A stretch of DNA of 63,519 bases from Psammoneis japonica (lineage: Eukaryota). The stretch spans positions 310,001 through 373,519 of the forward strand of contig QPGO01000079.1 in assembly GCA_008632985.1 (NCBI GenBank), read 5' to 3'. The position numbers and the translations under genes are program-made. Positions within the stretch are counted from its first letter, which is position 1, and every line of letters starts with the position of its first letter. The notes under the pieces are model-generated. The model did not search any database. It was not told the DNA's origin and saw only the letters and a list, made by a program, of their open reading frames with translations. Positions 14,143 through 56,600 of this stretch are shown here, one piece after another.

Positions 14143-14399
14143 GCGGTTCTAAAACATAAAAGAAGACTCCTCTTTGCTCAATTGGCAGCAGTGACGATGC
14201 CTGAGCATGAACTGCGAATCTACTCTGAACTCAACTGCGCACCAACCCCGGGAGAAGCGAAGTCCATGCCGTCTTGTGCAGTCTTGTGTGCTTCATTTTT
14301 TCGTCCAGCCGGTGTCGCGTGTCCGTCCGGCGCTGCTGCTCAATAAATGTGTGACCGTGCGCTACGTCAGTCTTGCGTCAATTCATCCCGCCCACTAAT

Positions 14400-26600: not shown

Positions 26601-26964
26601 AAAGTAGAATTGCCTCCACCATGCGTGGTGCGCTGACGCCAGAGAAGCAATTGCTGTTTGAACGCCATTCCTCAAATGAAACTCCGGCAGAACCATAGAA
26701 CTAAATTGCAAAGAATCGCGTGTGAATGCATGTTGCATGGCACCAATGGAAGCAATGGACTACACTGCTTGTGACGGGTGGAGTTTAGAAAGACATGGAC
26801 TAATAGGACACACCAATGCAATGCTGCTCCTATTAGCTAGACTGCTGGAGCACCACAGAGTAAGACATGCTCTTTCGAACAATGACAACGTAAAACTCGG
26901 CGCTCGCTCCTTAAACCTTACAGCACGCTCGGGGCTAGCAGAACATCCATACAATTGACATGCA

Positions 26965-32990: not shown

Positions 32991-35900
32991 TGTCACGAAT
33001 TTTTTACTCTCCAAAACCTCAAAACCACCATGACGACCAAAGAAAGCAGCCATGACAATCTGTGGCTCACCCAGATCAAGCAAGGCATCCACAACAAGGT
33101 CGGAAGAGACAGCGTGCGGGGCGAAGACATCTGGGGGGGAACTTGCAGAGGGAGTGCAGTGCGCACCATTGCGTGGGATGAAATGCTTGTGTTCACAATC
33201 ACACATTGCTGCATGTGCAAATCAGGTCACAGTTGTGGATGTGTGCAAAAGGACAGATCAACCAGCACACAGATTTGGTTGGATGTCTCGAAAACTGCAA
33301 ATGCGATCGACCGACGATGTCGACACATGAGGTGTCAGCGCTGATCACATCCGGACAATCTGCTGTCACAATCAGATGCTCCAAATGACCTTTGCTTTGC
33401 AAACATGGTGCAAATGCTTTGGACCATTGAGAGCTCCTTCAGAGAAACTCCAAATGGCAGAACAAAGTCCAATCTCGCAATTTTTGTTTTTCGTGAGATT
33501 CGCTCTGCTTTTGCCTGCACTTGTTCTTTGAGCACAGTGCATTGTGCACACACACCACAGAAAGCAAAGAGACAAAAGTGAAGCTTTTGTCTCATGCAAC
33601 CAATGGCAAGTCTTCTGTCAAGCAGGAGACAATCACACCTGCACCGCTGGAGCCGATCTCCGAGCCAAATGTGCTCAAACCAAGCCAGCAGCACCTCAAG
33701 ATGGTGCAGTGTTTTCACCCTGGAGACAAGAAGAGCCACACCCACACAATCAATGTTGAGCACTGCAACAAGCAGGGAGTTCCCATGTGCATCAAATTCC
33801 TCAACAGTCAGACAGAGTGTCCAACAGGAGCAGGCTGATGAGTTTCTTGCAGCATGATGCTTGCGTTGTTGCGTGGAGATGCTCTCCAAGTTTTTGAGAA
33901 TGAGGTGGCAAATGTTGGCTCCAAACAGGACAAAGGAGCCTTCAGAAAATGTGAGCATCACCTCGCCAATCATGCATTCCCAAAGAATGCACTCCAAAAT
34001 CAGAGGCAGTGTCTGCAACGTGAAGCCAGACTCTGTGAAGATTCGAGAAATCACTGTGTGGACCCAGCAAGTGAACAAAGACTTCAAGTGCCACCCTCTC
34101 TTTGAGACAAACCAGAATCTGGATGACAATGAGCTCAAAGACAGCATTTGCAACCTTGCGCCTTGCTGCCAGCACAGCCAGTCCACTCTTCAAGGTTTCA
34201 ATGTTCTCAACCACACTTTTGATGAGTTGGCGGAGCTTTTGGAGCATCTGGAGGTCACAGAGGGCACATTTGACCAGATCCATGTCAAGGGTGACACTGA
34301 CAAAGCCAACAATTGATGAAACCATTGTAAAAGCACTGTCCATGATTCATCAAAAGACTGGCAAAGGAATGCAGCAAGACTGGCAACATTCAAATGGCGC
34401 ACAGTTGCACAGGGTCTTGTTGCAACACAAACAATGCCTCTAAAAAAGAAGAGTTGAACACCATGGTTGCTCAAGCAACTCACAAAACCCTCAATGCAAG
34501 TTCCCTGACAAAAGACAAGAGAAATGCAAAGCCAAAGATTCAGGCTCTTGACACCCTCAGTCAGGGCAGAAACTGTCAATTTGAAATGATGACTCACAGT
34601 GATTCTGAGGAATGGCTGGCACCCATCAAGGAATCATGTGCATCGCTGGCTGGAAAAGGCTGGAGTGATTCATGCTGGTGCAGCAGTCATTGCTCACATG
34701 AACACTTCCTTGGGGAAAGAGAAAAATGAGCCTCTGCAAGTTGTTCTTTGCAGCGAAACATTGTCAAGCACAATTTTGCACAAATTCACATGGAAATTGA
34801 GAACCACAGAGAATGTGCCACCAAAACTCATAAAAGCAAGGGAGGGTTTTTTACAATTGACAGCAAATGCAAAATGCAGCTCTCATTGCCTGAATTTGAC
34901 AAGCACAAGCTGATCAAGAAAGATGGCATGCATGGAGAGCACCCCTTCTTTTTCTTGTGGATGAGACATGATCATGGGGCATGACTTCCTGAGCAGTCTT
35001 TGAATTGTGCTCAACTTTGCAAATGAGGAAATTAAATGGGAAGATGCAACTGCACCAACAAAAAATGTTGATGCATTTTTTGATGCCGAGGTCCTCAGGC
35101 TGGCTGACTGCCAATCACATTGAGGAATCTTGCGCCACAAATGGTCTCAATGACAGGGTCAACAGCATCCTTGATGCTGACTGTCATGCTGCTGAACTGC
35201 CTCCTGATGAGATTTGAAAACATTTTCAATGGCAACCCAGGTGTGTGGACAGCGAAGCCAATCAATCTTGCGTTGAAGTTGGGTGCAGAGTCCTGCACCA
35301 GAAACCAATTCCTGTTCCACAGGCCTTGAAGGCAACTGCTTGAAAGGAAGCTAGAAGACTCTGCAAGACAGAAGTCTTGAGAAGAACAAATCACTCTGAA
35401 TGTGCAGCTCCAACCTTTGTCCAAATTGGAAACTGGCGCATGCTCTGCCCAACATTCAAGACATGCTTCAGAAGCCCAAGGGCTTCATGCATGCAACGTC
35501 ACTTGATTTGAACATGGGACATTGTTGCATTGAGTGGACATCATGTGCACATTGTGTGTGTTGCATGATTGTGATGCTGCGGGGCAAGTGTGAGTGCTGC
35601 AGACATCCAGTGGGAATCGGCGGAGCTCCAGATGTTTTCCAAGAGCACACAGGCAAATGCATGTTGACAACATGCCATGCCTGACAAAAGGTGACTTCAA
35701 AGATCACCTCCATCAGCTCAAAACAGCACTCACATGGCTCAAACAAGCCAGTTTAAAGGTCAATGCCAAACAGCCCTTTTTTGCAAAGTCTGAAGTGGGC
35801 TCTCTGGGATTCCACATTTTAAAGGTGCTCAACCAACTCTCAAGAAAGTGGAGGCAATTAAATTGACCACAGCTCCTGGGACTCATGAGGGGAATTGCAG

Positions 35901-36230
35901 TGTTTCATTGGTGTGGTTGACTGCTGTCAAGACATGTGGCCTCCATGGTCTCACTTGCTTGCTCCTTTGGCCAAACTTTCCTCATGTGAGGTCAAGTGGC
36001 AATGGGTGAGCACGGAACAAAAAGCCTTCCAAAATGCAAAGCAAGCAATGTTGACAGATGTGTTGTTGTCACACCCGAATTTCAACGAACCCTTTGAGAT
36101 GTGTGCAGATGCAAGCAGTTCTCAATTGGGTGTGGTTGTCTCACAGCACAACTGACCTGTTGCCTTCTGCAGAGCCGAGAGCCAAATGAAGCACAGATGC
36201 CACATGGCAAGCCGTGTGCAGAAACCCTTG
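32991..36230 (+). mobile_element. Degenerate Ty3/Gypsy LTR retrotransposon (gag, protease, RT, RNase H; integrase not seen)
   Basis: Relic motifs FPKNALQNQRQCL (gag), DMIMGHDFL (protease), LPNIQDMLQKPKGFMHATSLDLNMGHCCI, GKCECCRHPVGIGGAPDVFQ, FIGVVDCCQDMWPPWSHLLAPL, LLSHPNFNEPFEMCADASSSQLG. Possible 5' LTR TG..CA at 32991-33405 followed by TGG (PBS-like), less certain. Confidence 0.85.
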
Positions 36231-36689
36231 ACCACAGGCAGACTCAGCACTTTTAAAAATTGGCTCACTTTTTTGCAGTCTGTGACATTGGCATGATGTG
36301 GCAAAACATTCACCACTGCAACAAAAAAACAGAAGGCATTTGCAGCTTCTGCGATGATGTTCAGAGTCGATTGGAGTGGGTTGGTGTGGTGCTTTTGCTG
36401 CTGCCAATGGTTCACAACCATGCTGTCAGTTGGCAAGTGCAAAACCTTCTTGTTTCACCTTCTCCTCTTTTTTGACACGTGTGTTTTTTTCTGCCTTTTG
36501 TGTTTGATCAGTGGGCAAGAATCACCAACAGCAAACAAATTGACAGTGTGGGAAGTTGACTGTCAATCCACAATGGCATTGTGGCCTTGAGTCTCTCAGT
36601 GAGGGTGTGCCAAACATCTTCCACCAAAAAGTGGAAACACATGCACATGCAGACAAATGCAAAAAAAAGAACTTCATTGCAACACTCAA

Positions 36690-39100
36690 CACCTCCAAAT
36701 TAAATTCAATTCAATCTTAAATTTTACACAGCCCTTGCCAACTGCTGCCCATGCTGAGCTTTTGACAATGCCTGACATGCCATTCAATCCACAACTGTGG
36801 ACAGGGTCAGAGCGTGTGTGCAACGCAAAACAAGTGCAACAATTCTGCATTTGCAGTTGCAGGTGGAAACACTGCACAGCCGACAGTCCCCAAGAATTCT
36901 CCATCGGTCTAGCGAACCATCTTGCTGCATGGTGGTTGGAAGTGGGATGGCTGCAATGTTGCCCGAACTCTTCTTCGATGCAACCATCCAAGATGCCATG
37001 AGTTTGCAGTGAGTTCTCCACCAAATTGTTGACACACATGCGGTGTCTCCACATGTCCCATGCTGCATTCCACAGCTGGGCTGTCAAGCCGGAGACCCAT
37101 CGCAGTCCAGTGTTGCGGCAGTCCAAATGCTTGCAGTGTTGCTTTGGGCATGCACCCACTCAATCACCAGGATTCCTTGAGCAAATGAACTTTCTCCCAC
37201 TGTCTGTTGTGCAGTGAAGGCTGCTGCCACGTGGCTGCATTCTGTCCTGGGTGGCACCTGGGGAGCATTGTCATGCCATGATGTCAACATGCTTGCGATT
37301 CCCACTTTTGTGTGAGGATGAGCAAATTGCTTGGTGAGCCATTCTTTGACACTGTCAAGTTTTTTGGTTTGCAACTCCTGGGCCCCAAAGGATCTGCATC
37401 TCAGTGCATGATCTGTGCCCATCTCAGGTTCTTGGCATCGTGGACACACCTGGCCCTCAATTTGCCCCAGCGGTGCAGATTTTTTAGATGGAACAAAGCC
37501 GGTGGACCACTTGGATTGCCACAAGCGGCGGAAGGCAGGGCATTGTTGCGCGGCCTTGCCCAGTGCAGTCCAGTTGATTTCTGCATGTGTGGGCTCAGAC
37601 TGCAGTTTCTTGGCCCAATGTTTGGCAGCTGGTGGTCCGCACATGTGGTGAAGTGGTGTTGATTTGTCCCACTGTGTCATGGGCTTGCCTGACAAAGTGA
37701 TGCACCACATCTCACATGCCACGTCAAAGTGAGCAAAGGATGGCAAACCAGTTTATGCTTCCCAGTGCACTTTTGCCAGGAGATCCATTTCAACACTAAA
37801 AACTTCCAGGTGACTCAGCTGACTGAGGTCCACTTCGTGGTCTTGTTGACCCTCTTTGTGCCTGAACGATGACAATTGGAGTGTCCTGGATCATCCTTCT
37901 GATGGGGTGCATCAGGTCACAATTGGTCTGAGTTGGGTTGTTGCAGTTGTTGTAAAAACAGGTGCAAAGCACGAGATCACAATCACACCTGAGAATTGTT
38001 TGTCCACAAGTGACACTGTGTTTCAGGCACAGTTGGGAGAGTTTTCAGAGCACTCCGCACATTCCTTCCAACTCTCCTCTGCAAGCACTCTGATTGCTCT
38101 CTCTTCCCCGAGTGTGGCTCACTCCAGGGCATTGGTGTGAGTCGCCTTCTGATGGCACCAGAGTGTCATTGCTGCTGTTGCAGTTGTTCCTTTGAACGAT
38201 CCGTTGGTGATGCTCATGGTCGTTCCTGACAAGATTCCTGCGACCAACAGTGCATCCTCAAGTTGTCATTTGTGTGGCAGAGGTGGGGCCATTCAGCTGG
38301 AGGGTTCCTTGTCTCAATGTCAACTGGGGCGCATCCTGCGGTGGCAATTTTTGGTCCATGTTGCATCACCTTGGTTGGCATGGAATCTGGGCGACAGTTG
38401 CTTTCATGACCATTGAAATGACAGAGTTGTGAGCAGACCTCTGTCTGCTCTTTTGTCTTCCTGTGGATCCTTTCATCCTCCTTTGAGCAACACCATGGTG
38501 ATGGTGGGTGCTGCTGCCACACGCCCAGCTTCCTTCGCAGCAGCAAGTGTTGGTTCCGGCCGGGTGACAGACAGCACATGGTTGGTGCCTCTTGTCAAAG
38601 CCTTCAGCATGAGGCAGAGGGGCATCCTGCGTCTGGCCACTCAAAGTCCGTGCCGCATGGCTGTTCCCCATTCCAATGTTGTGGCAATGTGCTTGTTCTG
38701 TCGCCACTTGAGATGTTGGAGACAAGTGCTGTGTTGAGCCACATCCTGCACAGATTGATCTTGCGCAATCTTTTGCCTTTGCATCTAAAGTCGACAAACA
38801 TGTTCATCAAGAAAGTGTCGCTCATTCTGTTTTGTTGCGGAGTGAGGTGGGCAATTGCAAATCAACATTGCATCCCCAGCAAAAACTCCACAGGGACTTA
38901 ATCCATGTTTTTGTCACCAGGATGCCAAATTTGTTGCAGTCAACCATGAAGAGCTGTTTCTGTGAGCCGGCCTCCAAAGTTGTCATCTCTCAAACAAGAA
39001 GCATTTCCTTCTCTGTCATGGAGGTGGAGTCAATCTGTTGAAGGAAGGTTTCCAATTTCAAGATGCCTTGCAAGACATGTGGCTTGGTGATGCCTGGCAG
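36690..39100 (-). mobile_element. Degenerate non-LTR retrotransposon (LINE, Ambal-like) 3' portion
   Basis: Relic motifs FGILVTKTWIKSLWSF, KINLCRMWLNTALVSNISSGD, FRHKEGQQD...MDLLAKVHW (RNase H-like), INWTALGKA...WQSKWSTGF, CPRCQEPEMGTDHALRC (CCHC), LWNAAWDMWRHR. Confidence 0.75.
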
Positions 39101-42100
39101 TGTTCTCCGTGAAATTGATGATGCCTTTGCAACTTTGGAAATTCACTCCTTTTCACACATGAACAAACAAAGACACTCTCAATTCCTCTGCGTTTGACCA
39201 CATGCAAGGCATTTGTGGTGTGCAGCCCCCAGGCATGCAAAAAAAGGAACTGAAAGGGGCTCCAAGAAAGCTCACCAACTTGCCAGGCCCCCGGGCATGC
39301 AAAAAAAGAAACTGAAAGGGGCTTCAAGAAAGCTTGCCAACTTGCCAGGGGCTGAGGCAGCCAACCTGACAGGAGCCTCTGAAAAATTCATTGTTGGCAA
39401 GTCTTGTCCTGGCAAAAGGTGGCACAGCTGGAAGAGAAGCTGGAAAAGACACAACGATGCCATTCTGGCATGTCTGCTGGTGCTGTGGCACCCAATGTGA
39501 AGTCTCTGTTTGGTGCTGCCATCCTGTCCTTTGTGCGCCAATTGCAGAATCACAAAGATGAATCCAAGAAATGCATTGAGGCAGTGTTGGAGAAACTGCC
39601 ATCTGCCACAACACCAATTCTCTGGTGTCTTGCACAAACTGAGTGGTTTTTTGTTGTTGTTTTGTCAACCAGCAAGAGAGCTTGCGCATGTGCTTTGCAA
39701 GAAATTGCACGCAGCAGTGTGGACAGTCTTGATGTGCATTTGGGCAGTCTCAAAAGGGGTTTGTGTGATGTTCTGGAAGAGATTGAGAAAATTGCTGGCA
39801 GGGGGAGTTTGCACAAAATTCTGGAACAGACCAAGAAAATTGCAGGAAAAGAAAGCACAGAAAGTGCGGAGGAGGGGGGCATTGAAGAAGAACACAAACA
39901 CCAAGCATGGCAAATGACCCTGCTGCTGCCTTGGTTGGTTGATCCACAGGCTCAAATTCAAGAAAGGGTCACCTGGGGTTTGATTTGCATCGCACCTTTG
40001 TTTGTGCGTGTGTTCACCAGAAGAGCTGCTGCATGTGGTGATCTTGCACTGTTGCTCTGTGTGAAACTCAACAACCATTGGAAGAATGGCTTTGAGAGGT
40101 TGACATTTGGTTTGTCATTTTCATGTGTTGATTTTGTCTGGCTGCACGAATTTTTTGTCTGGACAAACTGGAGCTGTGTTTCGAGATCCAAGTTGACTGG
40201 GTCACCATGCCATTCACAGGTTTGTGCACACAACAACTTCAAGGTTGTAAATCCCTGCCAAAGTGACACCACAGTCATCAAAAGTGCAGCTGCAATGTTG
40301 ATTCAGTGGCAAGTTTGTGTTCAAAATTTTTTTCACAAAAGCTCGCATCGCACCCCCACTTTGTGCATGCGGTGTGGGGCTGGTGAAAATCCCTAGAAAA
40401 AAAAAGAGTGTGATTGATGCATGCTCTGGTGCACACCATGAGACTCCTCACTGCAACCTGCATCTGCTGCAGAGATTAAAAATTGAGGCGTGCAAATGTG
40501 GCATTGTCTGCCTTGATCCATCTCCCAACAATGGACAGATGGGGAGCAAACCTTGTCACGTCATGTTCTGGTGCACCCGACAAAAGAGGGGCTGAAGGCA
40601 GATTGGCATTGGCTCCACTTCATTCTCCCAACCTGACCCTCTTGGGTGACAACCATGACAAATGCACAACAGCAACACAATGAATGACAAAAAATGAGCA
40701 CAATGAAAAATGTGCACAATTCATTGGCAAATGAGGCTTTTTTTGTTGTTGCAATCATTGCACACAAACTTTTGTGCATGATCACAAAACTGAGTTCCCA
40801 ATGATTTGAAAGTTTCACCTTCTTTGACACCAAGATGTTTGAAAACACACCACCTGTTTTTAAAAAACAATTTTTGTTTCATGAGCTGGCTGCAAAAGAT
40901 GGTTGTGTGACATTGACAGTGTTGGGCTCAATCTTGAGCTCTCCAGCTTGCATTCTGGAGTCTGCCCTTTGGCTTCCTGCACACTCAGATTTGCAAAGTG
41001 CTTGCTCCTCAGCACTGCTGTTGCAGGAGAGGATTTCAGCGGGGGTGCAGAGGGAGCCATTGGCGCGTGCGCAACAGGATGTTGATGGGACAAGGTCACA
41101 CCATGACATGCCAAGCCAGACAAGGATGCTGCACAAAGCCTCAAATGTGGCCATGGTGCACTCTCACAACTGGCTGACAGTCAACTCAATCATTCCTTTT
41201 CTTTTGCCAGCAAAGGGGGGAAGAGTGAGAGCTGGGGAGAGGGCAGTGTGGCTGTTGGCTGTGCACAAAGAGTGCTCTGTGATGAGTGGCACATTTTTTT
41301 GCACTTGGAGTGGCTCTTCAATGAGGGTGGTCTCTGTGAAAAGAGACTGAGTTTTGTTGGTTGGTTTGTGCCAATCTGGGTTTTGCAGATGCATGCCAAA
41401 AAAAGCTGGTTGTTGCTCCCTTGAAGTTGGAGCAGCAAGAGCTGACCTCCAGCTGGGCACAAATGTGTGCAGATGAGGAGAGCTTGGTTTCTGGTGCCAC
41501 CAGGGCTGACGTTTGTGGCAGATGGGTCCATGGCAGGCAGACAGATGTCAGTGTCAAGCATGTTGTTGCATGAGTGCAGCTTTGTCAAAGAAGCTGCTGC
41601 TGGTGCATCATGCATGTGCCTGCTGCCATGCTCCTGGCCAGTGCAGCATTGTTTGTGCCCTTGCTGTTTTGGCCAACATGCACAACAAGAGTGGTGCAAT
41701 GCTGGGGGCAAGCCAGCAGCAACAAGTCAAGTGCAGCAATTTTCTGAGTTTTGCTTGTGCCATGATGGCTGGTGTGGGTCCATGCATTGGTTGCCAACAA
41801 GCTGTGATGCTTGGCTTGCAAGGTGCTTGTGCTGTCATCATGAGCGGCACAAAATGGGCAGCTCATCAAGGTGCTTTTGACCTTTGGGAGTCTTTTGGCC
41901 TGCTGTTGGCATTGGAGGCAATGTGGCAAGCCTTCCAGCTGCCCCCTGTTTCTTGTTGCAGGGTTGTTGAAGCTGGGGCATGCGTTGACCACACTGGCCT
42001 TTGCTTGTCTTTTTGTGTGTGCTCTCAGGCTGGCCAACATGTGGCGAGTGGTGCCCTCTCTGTCCATGACAACCAAGTTGAGTGGGAGGGCTCCACTTTG

Positions 42101-42455
42101 AGTGAAACAGAGAGAGCAAGCAGTGTCAGCTGTCATCACAAGAGAGGCCATGGAGAGCTTTGATCTTGGCAAGATGTGCCTTGGGCACATGCTGAGAAAT
42201 GAGAGCAGGTGTTGTCCAGGCAGTGTGGGCAGCAGACAAGACCCAAGCTGTTGAGAACACAGCCTGCACACACCATTGGCTCATGTGTGCAGCCAGCATT
42301 TGCAGCACCAATGAGCACCGTCTTGTTGCAGCAAGCTCTCTTCCTCAGCACAAACAAAAACATGCAAGTGTGTCTCTTTGTGGCACACAGGTGCACAGAA
42401 ACAACAACAACAACACCAACACCAACATCAGCACATTGGCAAGAAATCATAAAAA

Positions 42456-44890
42456 AGATGTGCTCTCTCTGTGTGTGGTGGCAGCTGCTGCATGCCTTGC
42501 CAAGAGCCCTGCATGGTTGGCCTGCTTCCTCTGTGTGTGAAGACAGAGTGGCAAAATGTGCTCTTGGGTCCCCAATTGAGGGGGGTCATTTGCTGCTTTT
42601 TCAGCTCAAATTTGACCAAACAGCTTGTGACTTGCATGACTTTTCCTGAGTTTCACTGCGCTTTGCTGTGGTGCAAAACATCAAGCCACATTCTGTGTTG
42701 GAGGTGGCTGTTCACCAACTCTCCATTGCTTTGTGCTTGTTCTTGTGCATGTCAAAGGTTGAAAAACACCAAATGTTTGTGGCGCCATGGGCCACCACTG
42801 CATTGATGATTGCTGTCATTTTGTCGTGCTTCGATCATGGTGCATGATGCCCTCATTTTAGTGCATGGCCTAAAATTCCTTCCAAGATGATGATGTTGTG
42901 AGCTTGAGCTGATGAAACCCCCTTCCCTTTGATGCACCCCTCCTCAGTTTGCACCTGATGTTTCCCTTTTTGTGCTTGTAGCTTGTGACGAACACTGTTG
43001 GCTTTAAAAGAGAGTGACAAAACTTTGGAGTCTTTGAATTTTGTTGAACATTCAGGGATGTTTGAGACAAAGATCCAGGCATCACATTGCACTGTTGTTC
43101 TTTGCTGGCTTGCACTGAAATGCCCAGACATCCACACAATCTGGCAAGGGTCATGTGCAGCATGCCTCGCCACTGGACAACACGGTGAGACCGTGCACAA
43201 GCCTCTTGTGCGTGGCAACGCAGCATTGTCAAACACGCACCTGGGAAGCACGACCACAGGAGGGCATGGCTCTGGGTCTTGGGCAATTCCAGAAGGATGC
43301 TAAGAGAGCATCCGTGTGAAGCACACCAGCCCATCGTCTGGCCCACGATGGCAGCGTGATTCCACACGATGACATCACTCGTGCATGGCGCGTGATGGCT
43401 TGATTCGCACGATCCACAATGTGAATGCACGATCGATTTGATGCAATCCAAATGCGAACGAATGGGGATTTGGCAAGATTCCCCATTCGCACGATCCCAC
43501 TTTCTCCACTCTAAACTAGCTCACAATTTTCACAACAACAAAGTCACAACACATCTTCACTTCACACACAAACATCACGGCAACGACGCTGCGACATCGG
43601 CAATGGACGCACACAACAACAGCAGCAGACTGGGAGGTTGTGATGCACCAAGACAACAACTGATGTGACAAGAAATGAGATGACAATGATCGAGTTGTTT
43701 TGGGAGCTGGTTGAGCCATTGGTGACGAAGGGTTTTTGGCACGTACAACTTGGTGCTGAAATCACGCAGAGGTTTTGGCCGCAGTGGGACTGTTGTTTTT
43801 CACTTTTTTTGGGGTGCATTTTGTGTTTTCTCGGTCGATCGCATTGATGAAGCACTGAAGTGAGCACGCGACAACAGATTTTGATGAAAAGTTGGATTTT
43901 CATTCATTGTGGAGGATCAGCACGGGGTTTTTAACACGGTGAAGCACGGGGGGACGATTTTTTCACCAGATTTGCAAGATCCTGCATCCCATCCAATTCG
44001 CACGCGCAATGTCAGTGGATTGATGTATTTTTTGTACGCAAGAAGCACAATGACGTCGACACACCCGACATGATGGACTTCCCGTGCTGTTGTCGTAATG
44101 AAGTGAAATCTTGTTGTGTTCGGTGCGTGGAGTCTAGCACCATTTGTCTGCATGTGGACGAGCACTGCGCACCGCAATTTTGGAAAGTGCGCCACTCCAC
44201 AGGGATTTGGCAAGATTCCCTGTTCGCATGATCCCACTTTCTCTGCTCTGAACTAGCTCATAATTTTCACAACAACAAAGTCGTAACACATCTTCTTTTC
44301 AGTGCCTAGCACATGCATGGGGCACATGCTTCCCATCTTCAACTTGCACTTTTGACTCTTTTTTGATCAAAAATCAACACAAAAAACCAAAACAATTCAT
44401 CACTGGCATGAGACAATGAAGTTTTGCAAGAACCTCCAGCGGGTGGTTGGTGCATCAGATCCAGAATGGGTGCTGCATTGGACCAACTGCAAGATGCTCA
44501 AGGCAAGTGGATTGATTGTCAAATCAACATGAAACAACGATGCTTTCAACTTGGCTGCAACTTCACATCATTCTCTTCATCCGCGCTCCCACACCAAGAC
44601 TTGTTTTGATTTTCACTCCAGAGTTTTCTGGATTCCCTTTCATTGTTTAAAGTTGTGATGCATTTGTTTCCATTGACATTGAGCGACGTCATTGTCCTGT
44701 TCAAGATCTTGATTTTGATTGGCTCAAAGATGTTTTTGAATGAAACGATGTGTGAATCTTGCGTCATTGTGTCCAAATGAGCTGGAGTTCAGAATCTTTG
44801 TTTTTGTCAATTTGTTTTGCTTCCCCAAAAAATGACGTGTGCGCATCTTGAACTTGCTCAATGACACCCTCTGGTGCCTTCAGATTTGTG
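42456..44890 (+). pseudogene. Hypermutated duplicate of the SPX gene upstream region, exon 1 and intron 1, interrupted by an insertion
   Basis: Colinear with 57885-59345. Exon 1 copy 44416-44502 reads MKFCKNLQRVVGASDPEWVLHWTNCKMLK with the donor changed to GCAAGT. Confidence 0.9.
43156..44324. mobile_element. 1169-bp non-coding insertion with TG...CA ends and an apparent 4-bp target-site duplication
   Basis: Absent from the parental copy (GGTCATACTTCC at ~58721). Flanked by CATG at 43152-43155 and 44325-44328. Ends TGCAGCATGC / TGCCCCATGC (inverted, 8/10). Internal ~95-bp direct repeat at ~43466-43558 and ~44203-44295. Confidence 0.65.
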
Positions 44891-45970
44891 ACAAACAATG
44901 CCGACTTTGTTGAGTGGAGAGTCAAAAAGCCCAATGAGCAAGCAAAGGAGAGGCAGCGGGAGGAGGCACAGAAAGAGCTGCAGGGGCAGGAGCAAAGAAA
45001 GGGCGTGCAAGCAAGAAAGTGCACAGGGCATTTTAGAGAAGGGACAGGAGATGCATCAGTGCAAAGTTTGGAAAGAAAGTGGAGAGCATGGGCAGAAAGA
45101 TGATGAACAACATTGCAGCCGAGAGCTTGGGTGGCCCATTGAGAAAGAGCAGACTGGCACAAGAGGAGCAAGAATGGTCAGCACTGATTTGATGCCAGCC
45201 AGAAGTGAGCAGAGGATGAGAGCATGGATGGCAAAGTGAGAGTGCAAGAGAAGGCAATGCAAAAAGGATCAGAGCCTTGGAAAGCACAGGAGTTGGAGCA
45301 ACCAGGGGGAGACAGAAGGGCAGACAGAGCAGTTCGCACATCTGAAGGAGCACCAGCAAGAGTGGGGTCAATCACGATGCGCTGCTGACACAAGCATGAC
45401 AGAGCCGATGTGCCAACCCAGGGAGCACGGTGGACTTGACAAGAGCAGGCAAAGAAAGCACAGCAGAGTCAGAGAAAGCCAGAGAGTCAGAGATGAGGAC
45501 AGAAGCATGGCAGCAGGATGCAACAAATGAAGCAGTGCGCGCACCAGTTGAAAGTGGGGAACAATGACCTGTGATTCACGCAGCTTTTTCGCCTCTCTGG
45601 TGCTCCTTGAGCCATTGAATGGCCTCAAATGCTCTCACCCAAGAATGCCGGATGATCACAAAGCAAGTCAATTGAAGTGGGAAAGCATCCTTTTCCCCTT
45701 TGCATGGTTGGTTGCAGCTTGAAAAAATGCAACATCGCTGTTGTCGACCCAACAATCACGACCCCGGGGTGAAAGCAACAAAAGTCATAATAACATGCTG
45801 TGAATTGCCGGCACTGCAGCACCGGGCAAGCTTTTTTCACACTCTATTACAGCACACCAAGAGCACCGGTGTACATTCATTTAAAAAAAAAAAATCCATG
45901 AAAGAAGACCGTTAGTTAGACTAGTCTGATGAGTCGTCTTCGTCCGACGATTCTTCACACCGGCACCTTG

Positions 45971-48900
45971 TCATGGCTGCTGCGCGCGCTGAAAACTAAT
46001 GAAAACGTTGTTCTGTTTGCCTCTGCCTCCTCTTCTTTTAATTTGGATCGCATCCTCGCCGACGACCGGATCGCCATTCCGCAAATAGGCTCGGACAATC
46101 ATCTTGAAAACACTTTTGTGTTCTACCTCGCTCAAAATTGTCATCACATCTTCCATACGAAGCTTGAAAGTGAGATCATCTATCCCATCACGACCGAGCT
46201 GGTTGCGTGCAAAGGTAGCCACCAAGGGGTTGCCGGATCGAGGATCGGATGGAGCTCCAACATCTCGGATTCTAAATCGTCGGGGAATAATGCATGTCTC
46301 GTCTTGCCCATCTTTGCATACCCGAATGGTACTCGTGTCAATGTCAGAGACGTCAAGATCACTGCTTCCGAGGATCACTGCTAGTAAACAACCACGTGCC
46401 TTCAGAATCACTTTGTTGCAGCGCCAGCGGCGCCGATTGCGCCAACAAGTGAACGCACGGCAGGATTTGATGTCAAAGGCAACGACACGTGGCTGCAGTG
46501 GTGCGCTGCTCGGTGAAGCACTCGGTTGGCTGCTCGCGCTTGGTGCAATGCTCGGCGGAGCACTCGGTTGGCTGCTAACAGAGGGGGTGTTACTGGACTG
46601 TTCTGATGGTTCAGATGAAAGGGAAGTCATTAGACTAGGACCTATGGACGGTTTGGAGCTCATGCTTGGCTCAGTAGACGGAGCAGACGAGGGCTGGAAG
46701 CTGATACTCGGTGAGATCGAAGGAGAAGATGAAGGTTTGGAGCTCACGCTTGGTTCCTCCGATGGTACCAACGACGGCTCCCAGCTCATACTTGGCAATG
46801 AGCTCGGACTGGTGGATGGCCACTTGGTAGAAGCCACCGTTGGTCCTGACGGTTCAATACAGACGTTTCGACTATCATTCGGACATGGATCAAAATCCTC
46901 GGCTTTCATTAGACCAGTCTCGAAAGCGCTCCCAGGGATAACAACTGAATAGAAACCACCGCCGTCAAGGATGAGCCCCGCCACAGAAAAAGGTCCGTCA
47001 AGTCCATTTTCTGCAATCAGAGTCCCATTGAATTCGAACGTTATTGGATTAGTGCCGCTCTTGAGGCTAGTAAGGTCAGAAATATAGTTGTCGATTTCTG
47101 TTCCATTGGTGTCCTGCAGCGTCGCAGACCAATGATACTCGCCCTCTTGTTCGATATAAATACTCATCTCCACGCGGAGATCGTTGTACAAATCATCATC
47201 ATCGGTATCGATGCCATACGTTTCTACCATGGACGTCCAAAGATGAATAGGTTTGTGCTGGAAGTCACGAAAAGAATACGCGGCCGTCTTATAGGTCTCG
47301 CTCATTTCTGCGAGTATAGCAATGGAAAGGTCGCGCTCTTCAGCAAGGCGAAGAGCGGTAAGGTAGTATGGCCCGTCTACTTGGTTCTGGAAGATGGATC
47401 TTCCGTCAAAGGCGACGTCCACGCTGTTGATACCGCTCTGTAGTTCGGCATCAAACCCGGTAGTTTGCTTGTTGCCGCGGAATCCGTCAACTCACCGAAG
47501 ATTCGGTGAACGCCGGCAGCGGTTGCATCTACGCTCACCTTGACTACCAGTCGATCGTAATAACCATCTGAGTTATCATCGGCTCCCTCATCAGAGAAGT
47601 TGTCGTCGAGGATCAAACTGCCTGCGGTGACGATGCCAAGGACGTACTTGCTACGAGAAAATGATACTGGAACTTCGCCGTCTGCTCTAATACTTGTACG
47701 GTAGTTTCCTGGCACGTTGGTGTCGAAGAATTGGCCGGTGTAAATGCCGTCATCCGCAACTTCATCTGGGGAAACTCCATCATCTCGCAAGGAGATTACT
47801 TCCAGTTCTTCTTCAGGTGTCGCTACAACAGCAGAAACATTTGCACCTGTAAGTGGCGTCTCGCCATCTTGAGTCAAAGTCCCAAAGTATGTCAAGGGAG
47901 TGCCGACTGCAACAGAAGCTTTGTCCAAAGACACTTCAAGGGTGATAGAGGAGCCACTCAAGAGCACCATAACAACATATTCTACACTGGCCTGATCAAC
48001 GACATCGCCACTGACCGAAGCAACCAAGCTCTCATTTTTGACATCAAAAAGCCTGTAGATTACCGTTTTGTTCCCTTCATACTTAAATTGTTCAAAGGCT
48101 ATGTTGGGCACCTGAGAATGTGTAAGGTTGAAGCTAATCTGGCCTGATGTGTAGGTGAACAGTACATGCGCGTCAGACGCTGTATCCAATGTGAGGGGAA
48201 ATTTGAAGACTTCGCCCTGTGCAACTACACCTGCAACGGTGAAGCACTCAACATTGTTAGACGCTGCTATCAGCTGACGGTTTGGAGGGTCTGCTCTGAG
48301 CAAACGACGAGACAGAGGCTTGTGCTCATATCTGGTATCTTCTATATACCCGATAAGCTTGTTCAAGACATATCCTGATTGAGGCAGTCCATCTGGTCCT
48401 CCATGCGCTGCATCAGCGGTCGCCCCGGAGTAGAGAATTTCATCACTGGTATAATCCAATGCAAAGGCAGACGTGACAGGAACAACTCCGTCACCAGCAC
48501 CAATCAATAGGTTCAAAATGAAGTTCAATGGGAATTCGAAAAAATCAGCGATGACACTGCCAGCGAGGACAGTGTACCTACGCCAGGAATCAAAAGTGAG
48601 GAGAGAACGCCATGAGAGCTGGCTTTTATTCCGCCGAAGGTCAAAGATACTGGCCGCACAAACAGACAATTTATGTCCTTACCTGACGTTTGGATTGTAT
48701 CCATGCAGTAGATTGTACACTTTCATGTGCGTCGTGGATAGCTAATAAAATGCTGGTCCCGTACCCCCCAACACTAATTCTTGAAAAAATCCCAAAATTA
48801 AAACAGTAGCGAGTGCTACGTCAAAAAGATTTACATCTTCTTCTGGTTTTAGCACTTTTTCCAAAATGAGTCCCAATTCCAGAGATGATCCAATGGCCAA

Positions 48901-50583
48901 CTCAACAAGGGTAGTTCCTTCGTTGGGTGTGGCAATCTGAATCAGCTGAGCTATATCATCATGATTCTCAACGTAGTGCCGGGAATCAAGACCCCCTTTG
49001 CTGTGTGCAACAATGTTGAGTTTGTCCACACCCCAGCGTCTCTTTGCGTCAGCGATTGCTAATTTAAGGTCATGAGCATTGTTTGCAATAGAATCATAAC
49101 CTCCCAGGGAGATATGTCCGTCAAAGGGAATGCCGAGACTGGTCAAATGATTCGCCCATGTGCGCCCGATCCACATACTTGCACCTGCTCTATATCCGTG
49201 AACCAGCAGGACGGGACGAGGTGCCTCATCAATTGTTAGTTCAACCTTGTCTACTTGGATGCACTGGACCAGCCCAGCACCGGTGACTTCGATACGAACT
49301 CTGTTCATTTCTGGCTCCAGGGTTCCATCTTTTCCTGGGTCATCTGGAAAGTTGACTACCTCGAGTGGAATACTGAATCTGTTCATTTTCCATTTCCCAG
49401 GGTCGCCGGTGAGAACGCCAACTTCATCATCATTGAAGTAGACATGAAAGCGCATTCCATTTGATGGATATGGCCTGGTCGGATTGTACTCGATGTCGTA
49501 GGCCGCGATACGTAGGACTGCCACCTCAGGAATGAGACCATTTTCCAACAGTTTTGTAATATCTCCATAGTAAGGGACTACTGAGTCAATTTCCAATGGG
49601 ATGTTTGGACCATATGCACAGTTGTCCTCGAGCCTGGCTCCTGAGTACTGATCAAAGGCCAGCGCATCGATTCTAGGAATTCTGGTACTAATGAACCAAG
49701 GAAGAACGGTCTTTTCCATATCCACAATCTGAATCATGTTCTGGAATCCGCCGTATCCCCCTGGGGCATACATTAGCTGACTACGAGGCCGAAGGTCACC
49801 ACTCCCTGTTAAGAAATGTGGAGGCCTATACTCGTTTCCTTGAGACTGCTGCGGAATGAGAACACCGTTGACCGTGTCGACTATATGGTGGTCAAAAAAT
49901 GAATATGAAACACCCTTTAAGCTGTATTGATGCAACACATCATTTTCATCAAAGCCGAGGCTAAGGCCAGCCCAGACACGTGGACAGCAAATTGGAGGTC
50001 GGTAACGATCTCCAATTATCGAGGTCACTCCGTTTGTGGTATCAACATTTAAGATATACCACACCCCTCCTATGTCGGTCTTCACAATGTAGATTCTACC
50101 GGACTTATCGATTGCCAGTGTTCCGCTGTAGTCTGATGATCTCTGGTACGTCTTGAAGACTCGACCGGTTCTGTCATCAATGAAGACCAATTCCGAAATA
50201 CCAAAAGTACAAGAAATTCTGCCACAGTATGGATGGCTGACCAGTCCAACTAAATGGCCACGGTAGCTGTCGTAGGCTAGGGAATGGAAACGCCTGCGAC
50301 CACTGTATTATGTGGTCCCATCGTTGGTAATCTCGTGGATGTAGCTCACAATATTGCTTTCTCCGGTTACCTCATCCACCTTGTAGAGTGTGGCTCGGGA
50401 CGTGTCGTCTGTTCCCACAACGTACAGAGTACTGGCCGCTTCGCCGACCAACAGAGCCAACAGAGCGAGGACCTTTCCAATTGCTGATCAGACAAGAAGC
50501 AAGAAAGCGGTGAGCAGGATGGGAGGGGTTAAAAGAAACAAGTTTGCTCTCTGTGGTTCACCCTTACCTCCAGAAAACTTCAT
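45971..50583 (-). pseudogene. Large secreted multidomain alpha/beta-hydrolase (lipase/PGAP1-like) gene with two in-frame stops and one frameshift
   Basis: Spliced leader MKFSG|AIGKVLALLALLVGEAAS; VLLVHGY, AHSKGG elbow, GDGVVP, AAHGG; LRDDGVSPDEVADDGIYTG; two D..DG(Y/L)YD.L...F(D/N)G..I..N..DGP(Y/F) repeats; PS-rich stalk; C-terminal DIK...AVILGSSDLDVSDIDTSTI domain. Stops TAA 50308-50310 and TAG 48742-48744, frameshift near 47478, introns ~50484-50567 and ~48578-48681. Confidence 0.75.
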
Positions 50584-50850
50584 CTTCTATCCGATAAAGA
50601 TGGCAGGTATGATAATGTAACGATGATGTATTGAAAAAGGTATCATTGCTTGAATTGTGGGATGAGTTCGCATCAAAGATACGAGTTCGCATTGAGACAA
50701 CGAACTGTGGCTACAGTACAGTAGGGCCCTACCGGTACGTACCGTATTGCCGAGTTAGGATCCACGAGATAGAGTGGATGGGTGCGCCCGCCCCTCCGAA
50801 GCTAAGAGTGGGGTGCGCCATCCAAGGCTGTCCAAGGTGCGAGCAAATCG

Positions 50851-53800
50851 TGGCATGTGTCCGGTCACGTAGGTAGCTCCGAGTTTATGAAAAAAGAAGG
50901 GGCAAAGGAGGAGGAGGAGGAGGAGCGAGAGAGGGAGAGATGCATTCACAGTGTTCAGTGTGTGCAATGCGTTCAACGTGCGTGCACGACGCACAGACGA
51001 CCAGCGCTTCCGACACAGTCGCAGCTCCCCACTTTAGAGAGCAAACACTCTAAAGAACAGCAACGTGCCATGATCTGTCTGAGTCATTGCTCACGGAAAA
51101 TTTGCACGCCCACTGATGACGCCACCATTGAGATGCAACCGCACACCAAGCCAAAACTCCATCACTTTTTGCAGCCGGCTCCACCCCATTTTGTCCATTT
51201 CCTCTCCAGACCCGACTGCATGCGGAAAGTTCCAGTGTCCAATTTCCCACATCAACAAAGAACATCAAAAGACTCAAGTCATTGAGAGCATTGGCATGGA
51301 AAGGCAGCTGCAAGCCCTTGCAGTCAAAAACATCTGTGCTGAAAAATGGCGGGCAAAATGAAAATGTGAGTGGAACCACGCACACAACAACAACCCACTG
51401 AGGCCACATGTCACAGCGCACTCACTGTGTCAGCTTCCAGAGGTGGCACTGAGATGCCCCACCCAGTTTTAAGGCCCCAAGTGCTGCCAGTGGTTCGTGG
51501 CATCCGAGCATCCAAGAGGAGGTGAGGAGGCCGTCTGGGCAAGCCTTCGCCTCTCCATTTTGTCCGGCACAAAGCCTGGACTCGTTGGCTCACTGCCAAG
51601 ATCTCCCTGCATGATGTGGACAAAATTGTGTCTTGGACAATGAAGATTTGATTGCAGAGCCAGAAGAAAGGCTCGTCACAGACCAGACACCTGCACACAT
51701 GAACGAGACACACAAAAAAGGCTCGTGAGGTGCGCGGCTTTCGTCAAAACGACTCTAAAACTCAATCAATCACAATGGACTCACAGGATTGTCTTTTTTG
51801 GAGCATGTGAAATCTGTCTGACAAACGTCATTGTTGCAAGTGTCTCCGAGGCTCCATCATGTTGTTTTGTTTCCACGGCATGCATTTTTGAGAAGTTGAC
51901 ATTCTAAAAAATGACGTGCCATTGTTGTGCACTGACCAAGCCCCCAAGAAGGACATCAAGCAAGTCACAAATCCACCCCAATGTAAATGACAGGTGCGCC
52001 AAAGGATGCAGAGTGGGGTGCAGCACAAGGCTTCCAAATGGATGCACTGTGGTGGTGCAAATGCCGTGAAAAAGTTGCCAACTTTGCCAGAGCTTTTGGT
52101 CAACCATGCGAGACAATCAATCGACCTTGCAAGCTGTGACAAAATGCAAAACAACAATCTTCAGCAAGCATTCAAATGGCATAAAATGAGAAAACATGGA
52201 AAGAACTCATCACGGCAATGTTGTCGACCACTCAGATGTTGCCCGCACCGTGCCTCATTTGAGTTGCGAGTCAAGGCACGCAACCGTTTGCAGCATGTGC
52301 AGCAACCAAAGCACCCCAGGAGACCAAACCAATGCATCAACCTCTTTGTGACAATGACAGAAAGAGATCACCCATGAAAAATGCTTCTGAACCCACGATG
52401 TTTGCCATGCTGAGATGCATCAAAGTGCAGTGTGCATGGCCGTTTCTTGTGGCGCGGCATGCCAAATCGGGAGCATTTGAGTGGAATGAAGAAAATGAAG
52501 AGGATTCCCTCTTTTGTGTCATTGCACAACTTGTGCCAGATTGGACTGTTCATTTCTGCTTGTCATCACAGAAATGGAATTTTGTCATTTGTGGGATTCT
52601 GCACAAGTTCCAGCACATTTCCCACACAGTTTGTGAAGAGCCACACCTGCACAGCTGGATGATTGCCTGTTCTGGCACATGTCTGGTCATGCAGGTGGCT
52701 CCAAGTTTGTGGAAAAAAGAAGAGGCAAATGAGGAGGAGGAGCCAGAGAGGGAGAGATGCATTTGCAGTGTTCAGTGTGTGCACAATGCGTTCAATGTGC
52801 AATGTGCATGCACGATGCACAGACAGCCAGGGCTTCTGATGCAGTCGCAGCTCTCTGCTCTAGAGAGCAAACACTCCAAAGAACAGCAACATGCCATGAT
52901 CCATCCAAATGCATTGTCTGCTGCTTCATTGCTCACGAAAAATTTACATGCCCACTGATGACACCACCGCTGAGATGCAACCACACGTCAAGCCAAAACT
53001 CCATCACTTTTTGCAGAGCCGGCTCTACCTCATTTCATCCATTTTGTCTCTAGACCCAACTGGATGCAGAAAGTTCCAGCATCTAATTTCCCACATCAAC
53101 AAAGAACATCAAAAGACTCAAGTCATGGAGAGCATTGGTGTGGAAAGGCAACTGTGAGCCCTTGCAGTCAAAAACATCCATGCTGAAAAATGACAGGCAA
53201 AATGAAAATGTGAGTGGAACCACACACACACAACAAACCATCCACTGAGGCCATGTGTCACAGTGTGCTTCCTGCGACAGCTTCCAGAGGCAGCTCTGAG
53301 ACGCCCCACCCAGTTTTAAGGCCCCAAGTGCCGCCAGCAGTTTGTGGCATCAGAGCATCCAAGAGGAGGCAAGGAGGCTGTCAGGGCAAGCCTCCACCTC
53401 TCCATTTTATCCGGTGCAAAGCCTGGACTTGTGGGCACACTGCCAAGATCTCCCCATGTAACGTGGATAAAATTCTGTCTCAGACAATGAAGCAAATCGA
53501 TTGCAGAGCCAGAAGAAAGGCTTGTCACAGACCAGACACCTGCATGCATGAACGAGACACACAAAAAATGGCTTGTGAGGCACACGACTTTCGTCAAAAC
53601 GACTCTAAAACTCAGTCAATCACAGTGCACTCAAAAGATTGTCTTCTTTGGAGCATGTGAAGTCTGTCTGACAAATGCCACTGTTGCAAGCATCTCCAAG
53701 GCTCCATCACATCATTTTGTTTCCATGGCGTGCACTTTTGAGAAATTGACATTCCAAAAAATGACATGCCATCGTTGTGCGCTGACCAAGCCCCCAAGAA

Positions 53801-54489
53801 GGACATCAAGCAAGTCACAAATCCACAATGTAGATGACAGGTGCACCAAGGGATGCAGAGTGGGGTGAAGCACAAGGCTTCCAAATGGATGCACTGTGGT
53901 GGTGCAAATGCCGTGACAAAGTTGCCAATGTTGCTGAAGCTGCAATCGACCGTACAAGATGATCAATCAACCTTGCAAGCTGTGACAAAATGCAACAACA
54001 ATCTTTGGCAATTGTTCAAATGGCACAAAACAAGAAAATGTAGAAAGAACTTGCCACGGCAAGTTGTCAACCATTCAGATGTCACCCGCATGGCACCGCA
54101 TTTGAGTTGTGAGTCAAGGCACGCAACCGTTTGCAGCATGTGCAGCAACCAAAGCACCCCAGGAGACCAAAACCCATGCATCAACCTCTTTGTGACAATG
54201 ACAGAAAGAGATCACCCATGAAAAATGCACCTGCCCCACGATGTTTGCCATGCCCAGATGCATCAAAGTGCAATGTGCATGGCCGTTTCTCATGGCGCAG
54301 CATGCCAAATCGGGAGCATTTGAGTGGAATGAAGGAAATGAAGAGGATTCCCACTTGTGCCAGATTGGACAGCTCATTTCTGCTTGTCATTGCAGAAATG
54401 GAATTGTGCTGTCACAGGATTCTACACAAGTTCCAGTGCATTTGCTGCGCAGTTTGTGAAAAGCCACCTGTGCAGCTGGACGATTGCCC
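50851..54489. repeat. Tandem duplication, two diverged copies of a ~1.82 kb unit
   Basis: 50861-50889 aligns with 52683-52711 (offset 1822); colinearity continues to CAGCTGGAYGATTGCC at ~52667 and ~54488. Confidence 0.9.
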
Positions 54490-54599
54490 AAATTGTTGTG
54501 GACAAAGTTCTGTGGGCCGCACGTTGCATTGCAGTCACCGATGACCAGAGACTGCACAAACTGAATGATGGAAATGTCCAGCAATGTTGGCGTGACCAG

Positions 54600-56600
54600 A
54601 GGGTTGATCATTGTTGACAAATCATTTGCTTGCGCGCACTCAGAGGCACAGTTTGACAACAAAGTTTGAAGCCATTCACCACGTCATTTTGTTGTGGGGG
54701 AAAGAGTGGTTGTGGGTGAGTCAACCACAACAGTTGCATCATTGTTTGTGTCTTTGCTCTAAGTTTTTTGCCATGAGCAGTGTGAAGAGGTCCAGCTGAA
54801 ACTGGTGAGCAGCTGACAAAAAGTTGACAACCACAGTTGCTGGTGCAGCAGCACCTCCTTGCAAAATGCAGTGCCGGAGCAGGATGTCGTCAGATTTCAG
54901 CACCTTTTTGCAACATGGACTGGGGTTTTTTCCCTGTGTGTTGCAACCTCAAGTGCTGGTCGACTTCTTGGTGGCAGGTTTGGCCACGCTGTTGCTGACA
55001 AGAGCACTGCATCTCAGCTGGCACCTGTTGTCATGCTGCACTGTGCTTCTGTGCATGCTCCAATTTTGCAGCTGTGTGGGTGCCAGATCTGCTGTCAGTT
55101 TCCACTCAAACATTGAAAAGCTGTGAAACCAGAAACAGCACAAAGAGAAGCTGCAAAAGGGGGGGTGGCAGCACAAAGCTGTTTTCAAGGAGAGCAGGAA
55201 GCAGAGTAAATCAAAGAAACTGAAGCCAGCAAAAATGGAGAGGTCAAGAGCATTGGCTCAGATTTGAAGGCTTGAAAAGTCACTGGGTTCTACAATGAGT
55301 GTGTCTGTTGAAGTCTTTCTTGGTTGAGAGCTGTTTTTGGTCTCAGAGGTCATGAGAAAATGACTGCAACTGCACTGTGCTCCATTTCTGACAGATGCAC
55401 ATGATGTTTCAGATTTCATTCAACAGGTCATCTGAGGTGAACAAGCATGCATTGCAGACACATGCACCAGTGGAGAGACTGGTGTGATTTTAAAGTGACT
55501 CTTCTTTGCAAAGGGAGCAAGCACCACAACATTCCCTCAATTTTGGGTGTGGAATTGGAGGGAGGCAAAGGAGTCATCTTGGGTGAGAACAGCAATTGTT
55601 TGAAAAGGTGGAGCTGCGCGCATCTCCGGCAACATTGGCGCAGCACTTTGTGTCCTCAACACTGACAGCCAGAAGCGGTGGATTGGTCAACCAAGGTGCC
55701 ACTTTAGCTGGGCAATCACACATGATGGTGTCCCATTCGTGGAATTGTGCAGGACCAGCATTTGGAAAACATCCCTGCCAAGCAGAAGCTCATGGCATGC
55801 TGTGTTGATTTTTGTTTCGCGTGTCATTTGTGGAATTTTGCAGGGTCAAATCAACAAACAGAGTTGACAAAGCTTTGGTGTTTTGCTTGGATTGCTTGAC
55901 CCTCACACCCCCCACCCCAACTCTTGCAGAAGATTCCAACAATGACTGAGATTTCCACTTGCAACATCACAGCGCCAACACTCTTGCTTCCGACTGGGGG
56001 GGCGCAGTTGACAAAATTCTCCACATTCACATCACCCCCATCCAGTCTCACAATTCAATGGGTGAAAGGCCGCCAAGAAAGACATGCTTCTGTCCACACT
56101 CTTCCCTTTCAGGCTTGAGTGAAAATCTGGGTGGATGAGTCAGCCGGTGCTTGCCAACGTCATTGTCCAGGGGATGCTGTGCAAGTGATGCCATTTCCCA
56201 ATTGCCGCACACATTTGTCAGTGGTGCAAGAAGGCACAGTGACTTTGACTTGCAATGCGGTGCTTGTCAAATGGCACTCCAAGCAACATGTCAAAGCAGC
56301 CAAGCTTGTTCACAATCTTCTCCCAGCAAACAAGATCCCTCATCACTCAGCATGATCTGGTCCAACCACATCATTGTTTGACCTGCAAACACCCAATGAA
56401 AGACAGAGATCATGCACTGAGGTGCCCAGACAACAAAGAATGGCAAAAAAAGTTTTTGCAAGGTGGCACAAAAGCCACATGTTGTGGGGTTACAAAAAAA
56501 TGTTCAAATGCAAATTTGAACACATCCAATGACAAACTCACATGGAGCGCATGTCTGAACAAAAATGTCTTTTGGAGTCGCCACTTTCCAACATTCTAAA
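54600..56600 (+). mobile_element. Second degenerate LINE (Ambal-like) 3' portion
   Basis: CAGPAFGKHPCQAEAHGMLC (RNase H-like GP..G...YRAE.YGML), KLVHNLLPANK, CLTCKHPMKDRDHALRCP...WQKKFL (CCHC). Confidence 0.6.

Follow-up and report, generated by a model that had tools for sequence, protein, structure and literature searches.

Context-dependent loss of TpA and CpG in a truncated SPX gene copy, with its intact twin essentially spared, in the diatom Psammoneis japonica

In the chlorarachniophyte Bigelowiella natans, two viral insertions undergo approximately 1000-fold hypermutation, all of it A:T>G:C at TpA. According to the main text of the preprint, the raised rate is seen in only some lines, the larger of the two insertions is silent and present as a single copy, and ADAT2 is proposed to be involved (Mettrop et al., bioRxiv 10.64898/2026.01.13.699255). 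This 2026 preprint is the one direct precedent for a programmed A:T>G:C mutator of genomic DNA in the literature searched. Repeat-induced point mutation (RIP) of ascomycete fungi is described as striking either copy of a duplication once this reaches 400 bp and 80% identity (PMC3017866). In Phaeodactylum, DNMT5 is reported to methylate transposon-rich regions marked by H3K9/K27 (Hoguin et al. 2023, PMC9998398). The TadA-derived editor ABE7.10 is described as favouring the context YAY (PMC10188366). We found no report of a TpA>TpG/CpA signature in diatoms in the literature searched, a coverage that leaves out most subscription papers.

The window, i.e. the whole stretch of DNA analysed here, comprises 63,519 nt of the forward strand of Psammoneis japonica contig QPGO01000079.1 (assembly GCA_008632985.1, positions 310,001-373,519). 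It consists of normal DNA alternating with sharply bounded converted blocks (112 of 248 sub-windows). Converted DNA is poor in TpA (o/e 0.05) and CpG (0.24) and rich in CpA and TpG (CA/TG 1.82). The GC content is alike in converted and normal DNA (0.486 vs 0.479), and is thus unchanged by conversion, and the frequency of AA/TT is not reduced (1.23 vs 1.15). The features referred to below are as follows.

31615..32416, minus strand: conserved upstream neighbour of SPX, with a homologue upstream of SPX in other diatom loci
33100..45650, no strand: converted domain around the left copy, with sharp edges
42434..44872, plus strand: left duplicate unit, with upstream region, 5' UTR, exon 1 and most of the intron (blastn)
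43156..44324, no strand: high-copy insert of 1169 bp in the promoter of the left copy, with TG...CA ends and a CATG target duplication
44416..44508, plus strand: converted SPX exon 1 and GC donor of the left, truncated copy, 13 transitions vs 58815-58907
44873..57861, no strand: 13-kb segment between the duplicate units, with an unconverted island at 45.7-51 kb that holds a choice-of-anchor-X domain gene
51200..58450, no strand: converted domain of tandem repeats abutting the promoter of the intact gene (composition)
57862..58540, plus strand: distal upstream region of the intact gene, with a conversion that probably predates the duplication (TpA o/e 0.09, CpG 0.34)
58541..58814, plus strand: promoter-proximal DNA and 5' UTR of the intact gene, both unconverted (TpA o/e 0.34, CpG 1.72)
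58815..58901, plus strand: intact SPX exon 1 of 29 codons, its peptide identical to that of several diatom homologues
58902..59298, plus strand: GT-AG intron of the intact gene, GT being found here in 23 of 23 unspliced outgroup sequences
59299..60369, plus strand: SPX exon 2, completing the 385 aa protein (PF03105)

The intact SPX gene, a phosphate-sensing gene, encodes a product of 385 aa from two exons separated by a GT-AG intron. It belongs to the SPX family by its match to profile PF03105 (60.3 bits, curated cut-off 27.8), and of its 627 homologues the named ones are from diatoms. Contig 14 of run X2 starts at 58771 and skips the predicted intron exactly, and run X1 contains the intron. 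It should be noted that we call X2 RNA-like solely from the exact intron skip of this one contig, no listed run being recorded as RNA. None of the X2 contigs listed lies over the exon of the copy, which is no sign that the copy is silent. Upstream of the intact gene, TpA and CpG come back from approximately 58520-58620 onward, and the edge at 58.5 kb lies approximately 250 bp upstream of the 5' end of the spliced contig.

The left unit, whose working twin is 14 kb away, matches 57862-59267 over 42434-43154 and 44325-44872, with 73-80% identity (blastn). Outside the insert, TpA o/e in these two parts is 0.10 and 0.02. The neighbouring DNA is also converted, with TpA o/e 0.04 and CpG 0.22 in 33001-42433 and TpA o/e 0.06 and CpG 0.32 in 51000-57861.

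The gene at 31.6-32.4 kb, presumably a DHHC-type palmitoyltransferase as judged by a motif in its translation, is found upstream of SPX in seven of the 17 diatom loci with at least 1.5 kb of upstream sequence. Three of these seven are colinear and four, near-identical to each other, are inverted. The gene at 62.5-63.3 kb is found downstream of SPX in five other diatom loci. We found no homologue of 45700-51000 or of the CorA gene in 80 SPX loci. Since the neighbours are conserved and nothing from 45.7-51 kb matches these loci, the arrangement is that of a duplicate, a 13-kb segment and a second duplicate within the ancestral gene order. Of the two units, the left one lies towards the upstream neighbour, and exon 2 is retained in the right one. 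Both units are equal in age, and the difference between them is membership of a complete transcription unit. As both copies flank the segment inside the ancestral order, the terms duplicate and parent denote function and not age. The initial annotation had a duplicate targeted while its parent stayed intact; the essential sparing of one twin is borne out, but neither copy is clearly the parent, and the sparing speaks for targeting by place, duplication being at most a putative trigger. No terminal repeats, inverted or direct, were found framing the duplicate, and capture by a DNA transposon is therefore unsupported.

Three genes (12442-14148, 24027-24857 and 31615-32416) together with SPX have the same order and strand in another diatom (locus L006, 990-7582). 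They span approximately 9 kb there and 47 kb here, the extra DNA being largely converted blocks. A CorA-like Mg transporter (61107-62012, plus strand) lies between SPX and the conserved downstream neighbour and is absent from that place in the 80 SPX loci. Three adjacent open frames on the minus strand at 45971-50307, probably one gene, match choice-of-anchor-X (NF041940) and, weakly, alpha/beta hydrolases. This island is unconverted, is located between two converted blocks, is absent from the 80 SPX loci and is possibly of bacterial origin; X2 contigs cover 45965-49171.

We realigned the 93 bp of exon 1 and donor in the copy (44416-44508) with those of the intact gene (58815-58907), and recovered the pattern described in the initial annotation: 13 differences, all transitions and ungapped, with all five TpA gone (four to CA, one to TG) and two of three CpG gone, both to TG. 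The chance that 13 random changes strike all five TpA is P = 0.0006 (200,000 permutations). The wider pairwise alignment proposed there extends the exon pattern across 563 columns, retained from 713 where the intact copy is unconverted after columns near gaps or transversion clusters were dropped. The 23 TpA in these columns became TG (9), CA (11) or other (2), with one TA left, i.e. an A:T>G:C change on TpA, on both strands and of the Bigelowiella type, in 20 of 23, and 20 of the 22 TpA changes are transitions. The 27 CpG became TG (12), CA (5) or other (6), and four remain. Per site, A>G is found in 19/45 TA, 8/117 AA, 10/73 CA and 4/90 GA, which amounts to 19/45 after T against 22/280 in other contexts (Fisher p = 3e-8). 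G>A after C (17/53) likewise exceeds that in other G contexts (11/154, p = 2e-5), in line with an excess of CpG>TpG/CpA. The opposite change from intact gene to copy, CA/TG>TA, is seen in just 1 of 75 sites. The background divergence of copy and twin is approximately 6% transitions and 4% transversions. We regard it as practically certain that the context-specific hypermutation of the copy is real.

The loss of TpA in converted DNA depends on context. Relative survival is 0.000 for ATAT, 0.033 for GTAC, 0.20 for CTAG and 0.31 for TTAA, giving the order of loss TAT > TAC >> TAG >= TAA. YTAY became TG in eight of nine cases and RTAR became CA in 11 of 15, indicating that the mutated A prefers a 3' pyrimidine.

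The targets of conversion include a host-gene fragment and parts that are high-copy repeats. A Pfam scan of 85 open frames, almost all of them located in converted blocks, gave no hit, nor did a further profile search with eight such frames, and a transposon origin of the blocks is thus only putative. No TpA-free window was found among 1087 windows from other diatoms, taken from the 37 of 80 loci with at least 2.5 kb; these are short, gene-rich contigs that neither show nor exclude the process elsewhere. Across the converted blocks of the whole window, survival of GCGC is 0.69, as against 0.14-0.34 in other CpG contexts. In 29200-30000, 14400-14600 and 25000-25400, TpA is gone and CpG is partly kept, which fits TpA having been lost first. 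The 400-bp flanks of the domains have an RTAY:YTAR ratio of 31:40 vs 347:199 in unconverted DNA. Tandem repeats in the converted block are found at 50851-54488 (units of approximately 1.82 kb) and 56099-57863 (approximately 0.68 kb). Many mismatches of the types TG/CA, CG/TG and TA/TG separate the repeats at 50851-54488, whose transversions amount to 1.6%; conversion thus went on after their duplication.

As outgroups we used 80 metagenome SPX loci, 70 of which contain exon 1 (61 unique sequences). The base of the intact gene is found in 61/61 outgroup exons at six sites and in 56/61 at one, and the intact donor in 23/23. Eight of the 13 changes, including four of the five at TpA, are thereby derived in the copy. 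The residues G12, A13, V19, L20, H21 and C25 of the copy occur in 0 of the 19 homologues that carry the exon-1 peptide, among 121 proteins compared. Five third-position changes cannot be polarised; one of these is TGT>TGC, where C is found in 41/61 outgroup sequences. The inference of direction from conserved residues and the donor, made in the initial annotation, hence holds at eight of 13 sites and not at these five. At the conserved positions the TG/CA states are not ancestral, and the copy is the mutated side.

Run X1 has distinct contigs for the two, with a depth of 68.6 over the copy and of 60.4 over the intact gene. The copy is not an assembly artefact, both copies being present on separate public contigs, although X1 possibly stems from the very sample that yielded the window, and would then be a second assembly and not an independent sampling. 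Among the 40 differences listed of 169, only one of the 13 sites, 44450, reverts in X1, indicating that each site is fixed for either TG or CA. Where X1 and the window differ in the copy, four cleanly aligned sites (44450, 44505, 44687 and 44787) show a derived A:T>G:C outside TpA; these are too few to weigh. A TpA/CpA site segregates at 42450, which together with a young insert gives a hint of recent activity.

The exon of the copy has an intact ATG, an open frame and a GC donor. GC splice donors can function. Homology of the copy stops approximately 30 bp short of the acceptor, and read-through ends after 38 codons. Neither a tblastn search of the window nor a comparison with all pyrimidine-purine steps collapsed gave an exon-2 remnant of the copy. 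The copy is dead through truncation, exon 2 being missing, and not through substitutions. The donor change was considered as cause of death and rejected in favour of truncation, since a GC donor can work. The view that mutation killed the SPX copy is thus not upheld: the frame stays open, and the copy breaks off before the acceptor.

The insert in the left promoter is flanked by a 4-bp CATG target duplication, where the intact gene reads CATA. Its empty site is present in X1 (joint 43151->44325), and its summed contig depth reaches 27,427, as against approximately 60. The insert is probably a solo LTR, and it is younger than the duplication. It has a TpA o/e of 0.17 and a CpG o/e of 0.84, and an X2 contig of the insert family has TA at nine of the 11 sites listed where the window has TG/CA. 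This suggests that TpA was lost ahead of CpG, unless the donor element was already converted. A degenerate motif made from the insert gave 0 matches in the metagenome contigs. The insert contains an internal 100-bp direct repeat (43465-43564 vs 44202-44301), and a diverged relative is found at 25 kb (25039-25243 vs 43380-43568).

Because TpA loss is context-dependent, a partial attack should strip RTAY first. The intact stretch has an RTAY:YTAR ratio of 10:6, near that of unconverted DNA (347:199, p = 1.0) and unlike that of converted DNA (4:53, p = 9e-6), in agreement with the initial annotation that the twin was spared. The intact intron by itself gives 4:6 (p = 0.18 vs unconverted). TpA o/e is 0.42 in this intron and 0.34 in the intact promoter, as against 0.52-1.23 and 0.49-1.7 in orthologues, in both cases below all 28 rows, some of which are near-duplicates. 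The intact copy may thus have been slightly eroded.

In the distal upstream region shared by both units, TG/CA discordance is 6/67, equal to the baseline of 6/66. Independent conversion would give 16-24% (p 0.001-0.08 over 12 settings), in a timing test that is modest and assumes ancestral composition. Conversion of the region probably predates the duplication, and the edge near 58.5 kb has probably stayed in place from then on. That the distal upstream region of the so-called parent is converted stands (TpA o/e 0.09); as a hit caused by the duplication it probably does not, discordance being only at baseline. The duplication is approximately 1.4 kb long and its largest block today is 548 bp at 80%, within the size and identity range of RIP. 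The DUF1280 (PF06918) transposase element at 810-4462 (plus strand), located among genes, is unconverted (TpA o/e 0.61, normal CpG), and its long intact frame, with TpA and CpG kept, indicates that not every transposon is converted. In a second pair, converted 26430-26571 has 0 TpA vs 10 in intact 26823-26969; the two lie approximately 390 bp apart at the 3' end of an ammonium transporter gene. Since the twin was essentially spared, we favour place over homology, and consider it probable that targeting is by chromatin domain and transcription state and not by pairing of duplicates.

As a whole explanation we lean towards a rearrangement, a left unit placed in a silenced domain, and TpA and CpG transition processes acting there. 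A rearrangement would have duplicated approximately 1.4 kb of the 5' part of SPX on both sides of the 13-kb segment. The right unit would have kept exon 2 and its transcription, and the left unit, severed from exon 2, would have been absorbed into the neighbouring, putatively silenced domain. Inside such domains two transition processes have gone nearly to completion, as the end state shows: TpA turns into TpG or CpA on both strands, most rapidly at TAT/TAC, and CpG turns into TpG or CpA at a slower pace. The CpG part may most simply be deamination of 5-methyl-CpG, by analogy with Phaeodactylum. For the TpA part, DNA adenine could be turned into inosine by an enzyme of the TadA/ADAT2-3 fold recruited to silent chromatin, along the lines suggested for Bigelowiella. 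The strict 5' T and the preference of ABE7.10 for YAY make deamination by a TadA/ADAT fold a fitting candidate. Adenine deamination is the leading candidate for the chemistry of TpA loss, with a likelihood that we put somewhat short of even. More tentatively, we suggest that some diatoms may possess a natural, chromatin-guided adenine editor that acts on TpA, best at TAT/TAC, across silenced domains, captured host-gene fragments among them, and stops within approximately 250 bp of an active transcription start.

With the same targeting of silenced domains, the chemistry could instead be biased T:G repair, in which a thymine glycosylase or very-short-patch system, linked to methylated DNA, invariably takes out the T and so causes T>C at RTA. 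The end state, TpA>CpA/TpG, would be identical, and both the level of A>G after C (10/73, above AA and GA) and the four window-X1 differences outside TpA speak for it. Such repair would, however, need to ignore its commonest substrate, as T:G from CpG deamination was not rescued (17/27 CpG to TG/CA, CpG o/e 0.24). We consider it unlikely.

RIP-like homology sensing would strike both copies, with hit intact alleles purged by selection. The repeat-rich nature of converted DNA and the low TpA o/e of the intact intron and promoter would agree with this, as would an original duplication above the thresholds of 400 bp and 80% described for RIP (PMC3017866). Yet the copy lost 22 of 23 TpA, whereas the mostly neutral intron of its twin still has 16 TpA and 17 CpG, and the shared upstream region has no excess of independent hits. 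The polarity of mutation is moreover opposite to RIP, and the larger Bigelowiella target is, by the main text of that preprint, single-copy. Homology sensing is thus a doubtful explanation with a rather small chance of being right, and we retain targeting by place.

Polymerase eta produces transversions, and its rate at AA is a sizeable fraction of that at TA. Error-prone synthesis of this type, during repair of deaminated 5-methylcytosine, could spread A>G near methylated CpG, and would explain why TpA and CpG are lost together in the same domains, as observed. AA>AG is, however, at least ten times rarer than TA>TG, with 0.07 per A vs a minimum of 0.72 at TA (point estimate 1.5). AA/TT is undepleted and 20/22 TpA changes are transitions, and in the young insert TpA loss runs ahead of CpG loss. 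We regard this route as improbable. Decay as an ordinary pseudogene, GC-biased conversion or an artefact of sequencing or assembly could appeal to the shortness of 93 bp, to the background divergence of approximately 6% transitions and 4% transversions and to X1 possibly being the window's own source sample, but is largely refuted, and hardly credible, given the context effect (p = 3e-8), the unchanged GC content (0.486 vs 0.479) and the separate X1 contigs of similar depth (68.6 vs 60.4).

With its before/after pair and an outgroup, the locus allows targeting by homology to be told apart from targeting by place. The order of sequence contexts, and the order of events with TpA before CpG, can serve as a test for candidate enzymes. 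A deaminase, should one be the cause, would amount to a natural editor of adenine in DNA, and if the same enzyme acts in Bigelowiella, an A-to-G genome defence would be common to distant SAR lineages. Converted repeats lose TAA/TAG stops and likeness to their source elements, and would mislead gene and repeat annotation.

ABE7.10 also makes A:T>G:C changes in DNA, and its YAY matches TAT/TAC (PMC10188366), a likeness in context only, the enzyme being engineered. It is described as accepting CA too, whereas CA is far less affected than TA here. CpG>TpG/CpA in silenced, transposon-rich domains is what decay following DNMT5-type methylation, as described for Phaeodactylum (PMC9998398), would give. 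Loss of TpA is not predicted by such decay, yet is the stronger and earlier change here. As in RIP, context-specific transitions are densely packed on both strands, in repeat-rich DNA and in a duplicated gene piece. RIP is premeiotic and depends on a methyltransferase of the RID type. RIP is, however, described as C:G>T:A, mostly CpA>TpA, and as mutating both copies (PMC3017866), whereas here TpA is destroyed (TpA o/e 0.05, CA/TG 1.82) and one copy is spared.

The likeness to Bigelowiella, as presented in its main text, comprises TpA>TpG/CpA on both strands, bounded regions, a TpA-poor and TG/CA-rich scar, and no need for duplication. Erasure is near complete here, with o/e 0.05 vs 0.45 for the NCLDV region of Bigelowiella. 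The diatom domains lose CpG as well, and the words CpG and diatom occur 0 times in the Bigelowiella main text. The 3' preference for TAT/TAC is seen here, and the figures or supplements of the Bigelowiella preprint may show 3' context. The rate in Bigelowiella comes from mutation-accumulation lines, whereas the diatom locus presents an end state only, and its targets, unlike those of Bigelowiella, include a host-gene fragment with an intact twin. The process in the diatom works like that of Bigelowiella, with CpG decay in addition, and is not RIP.
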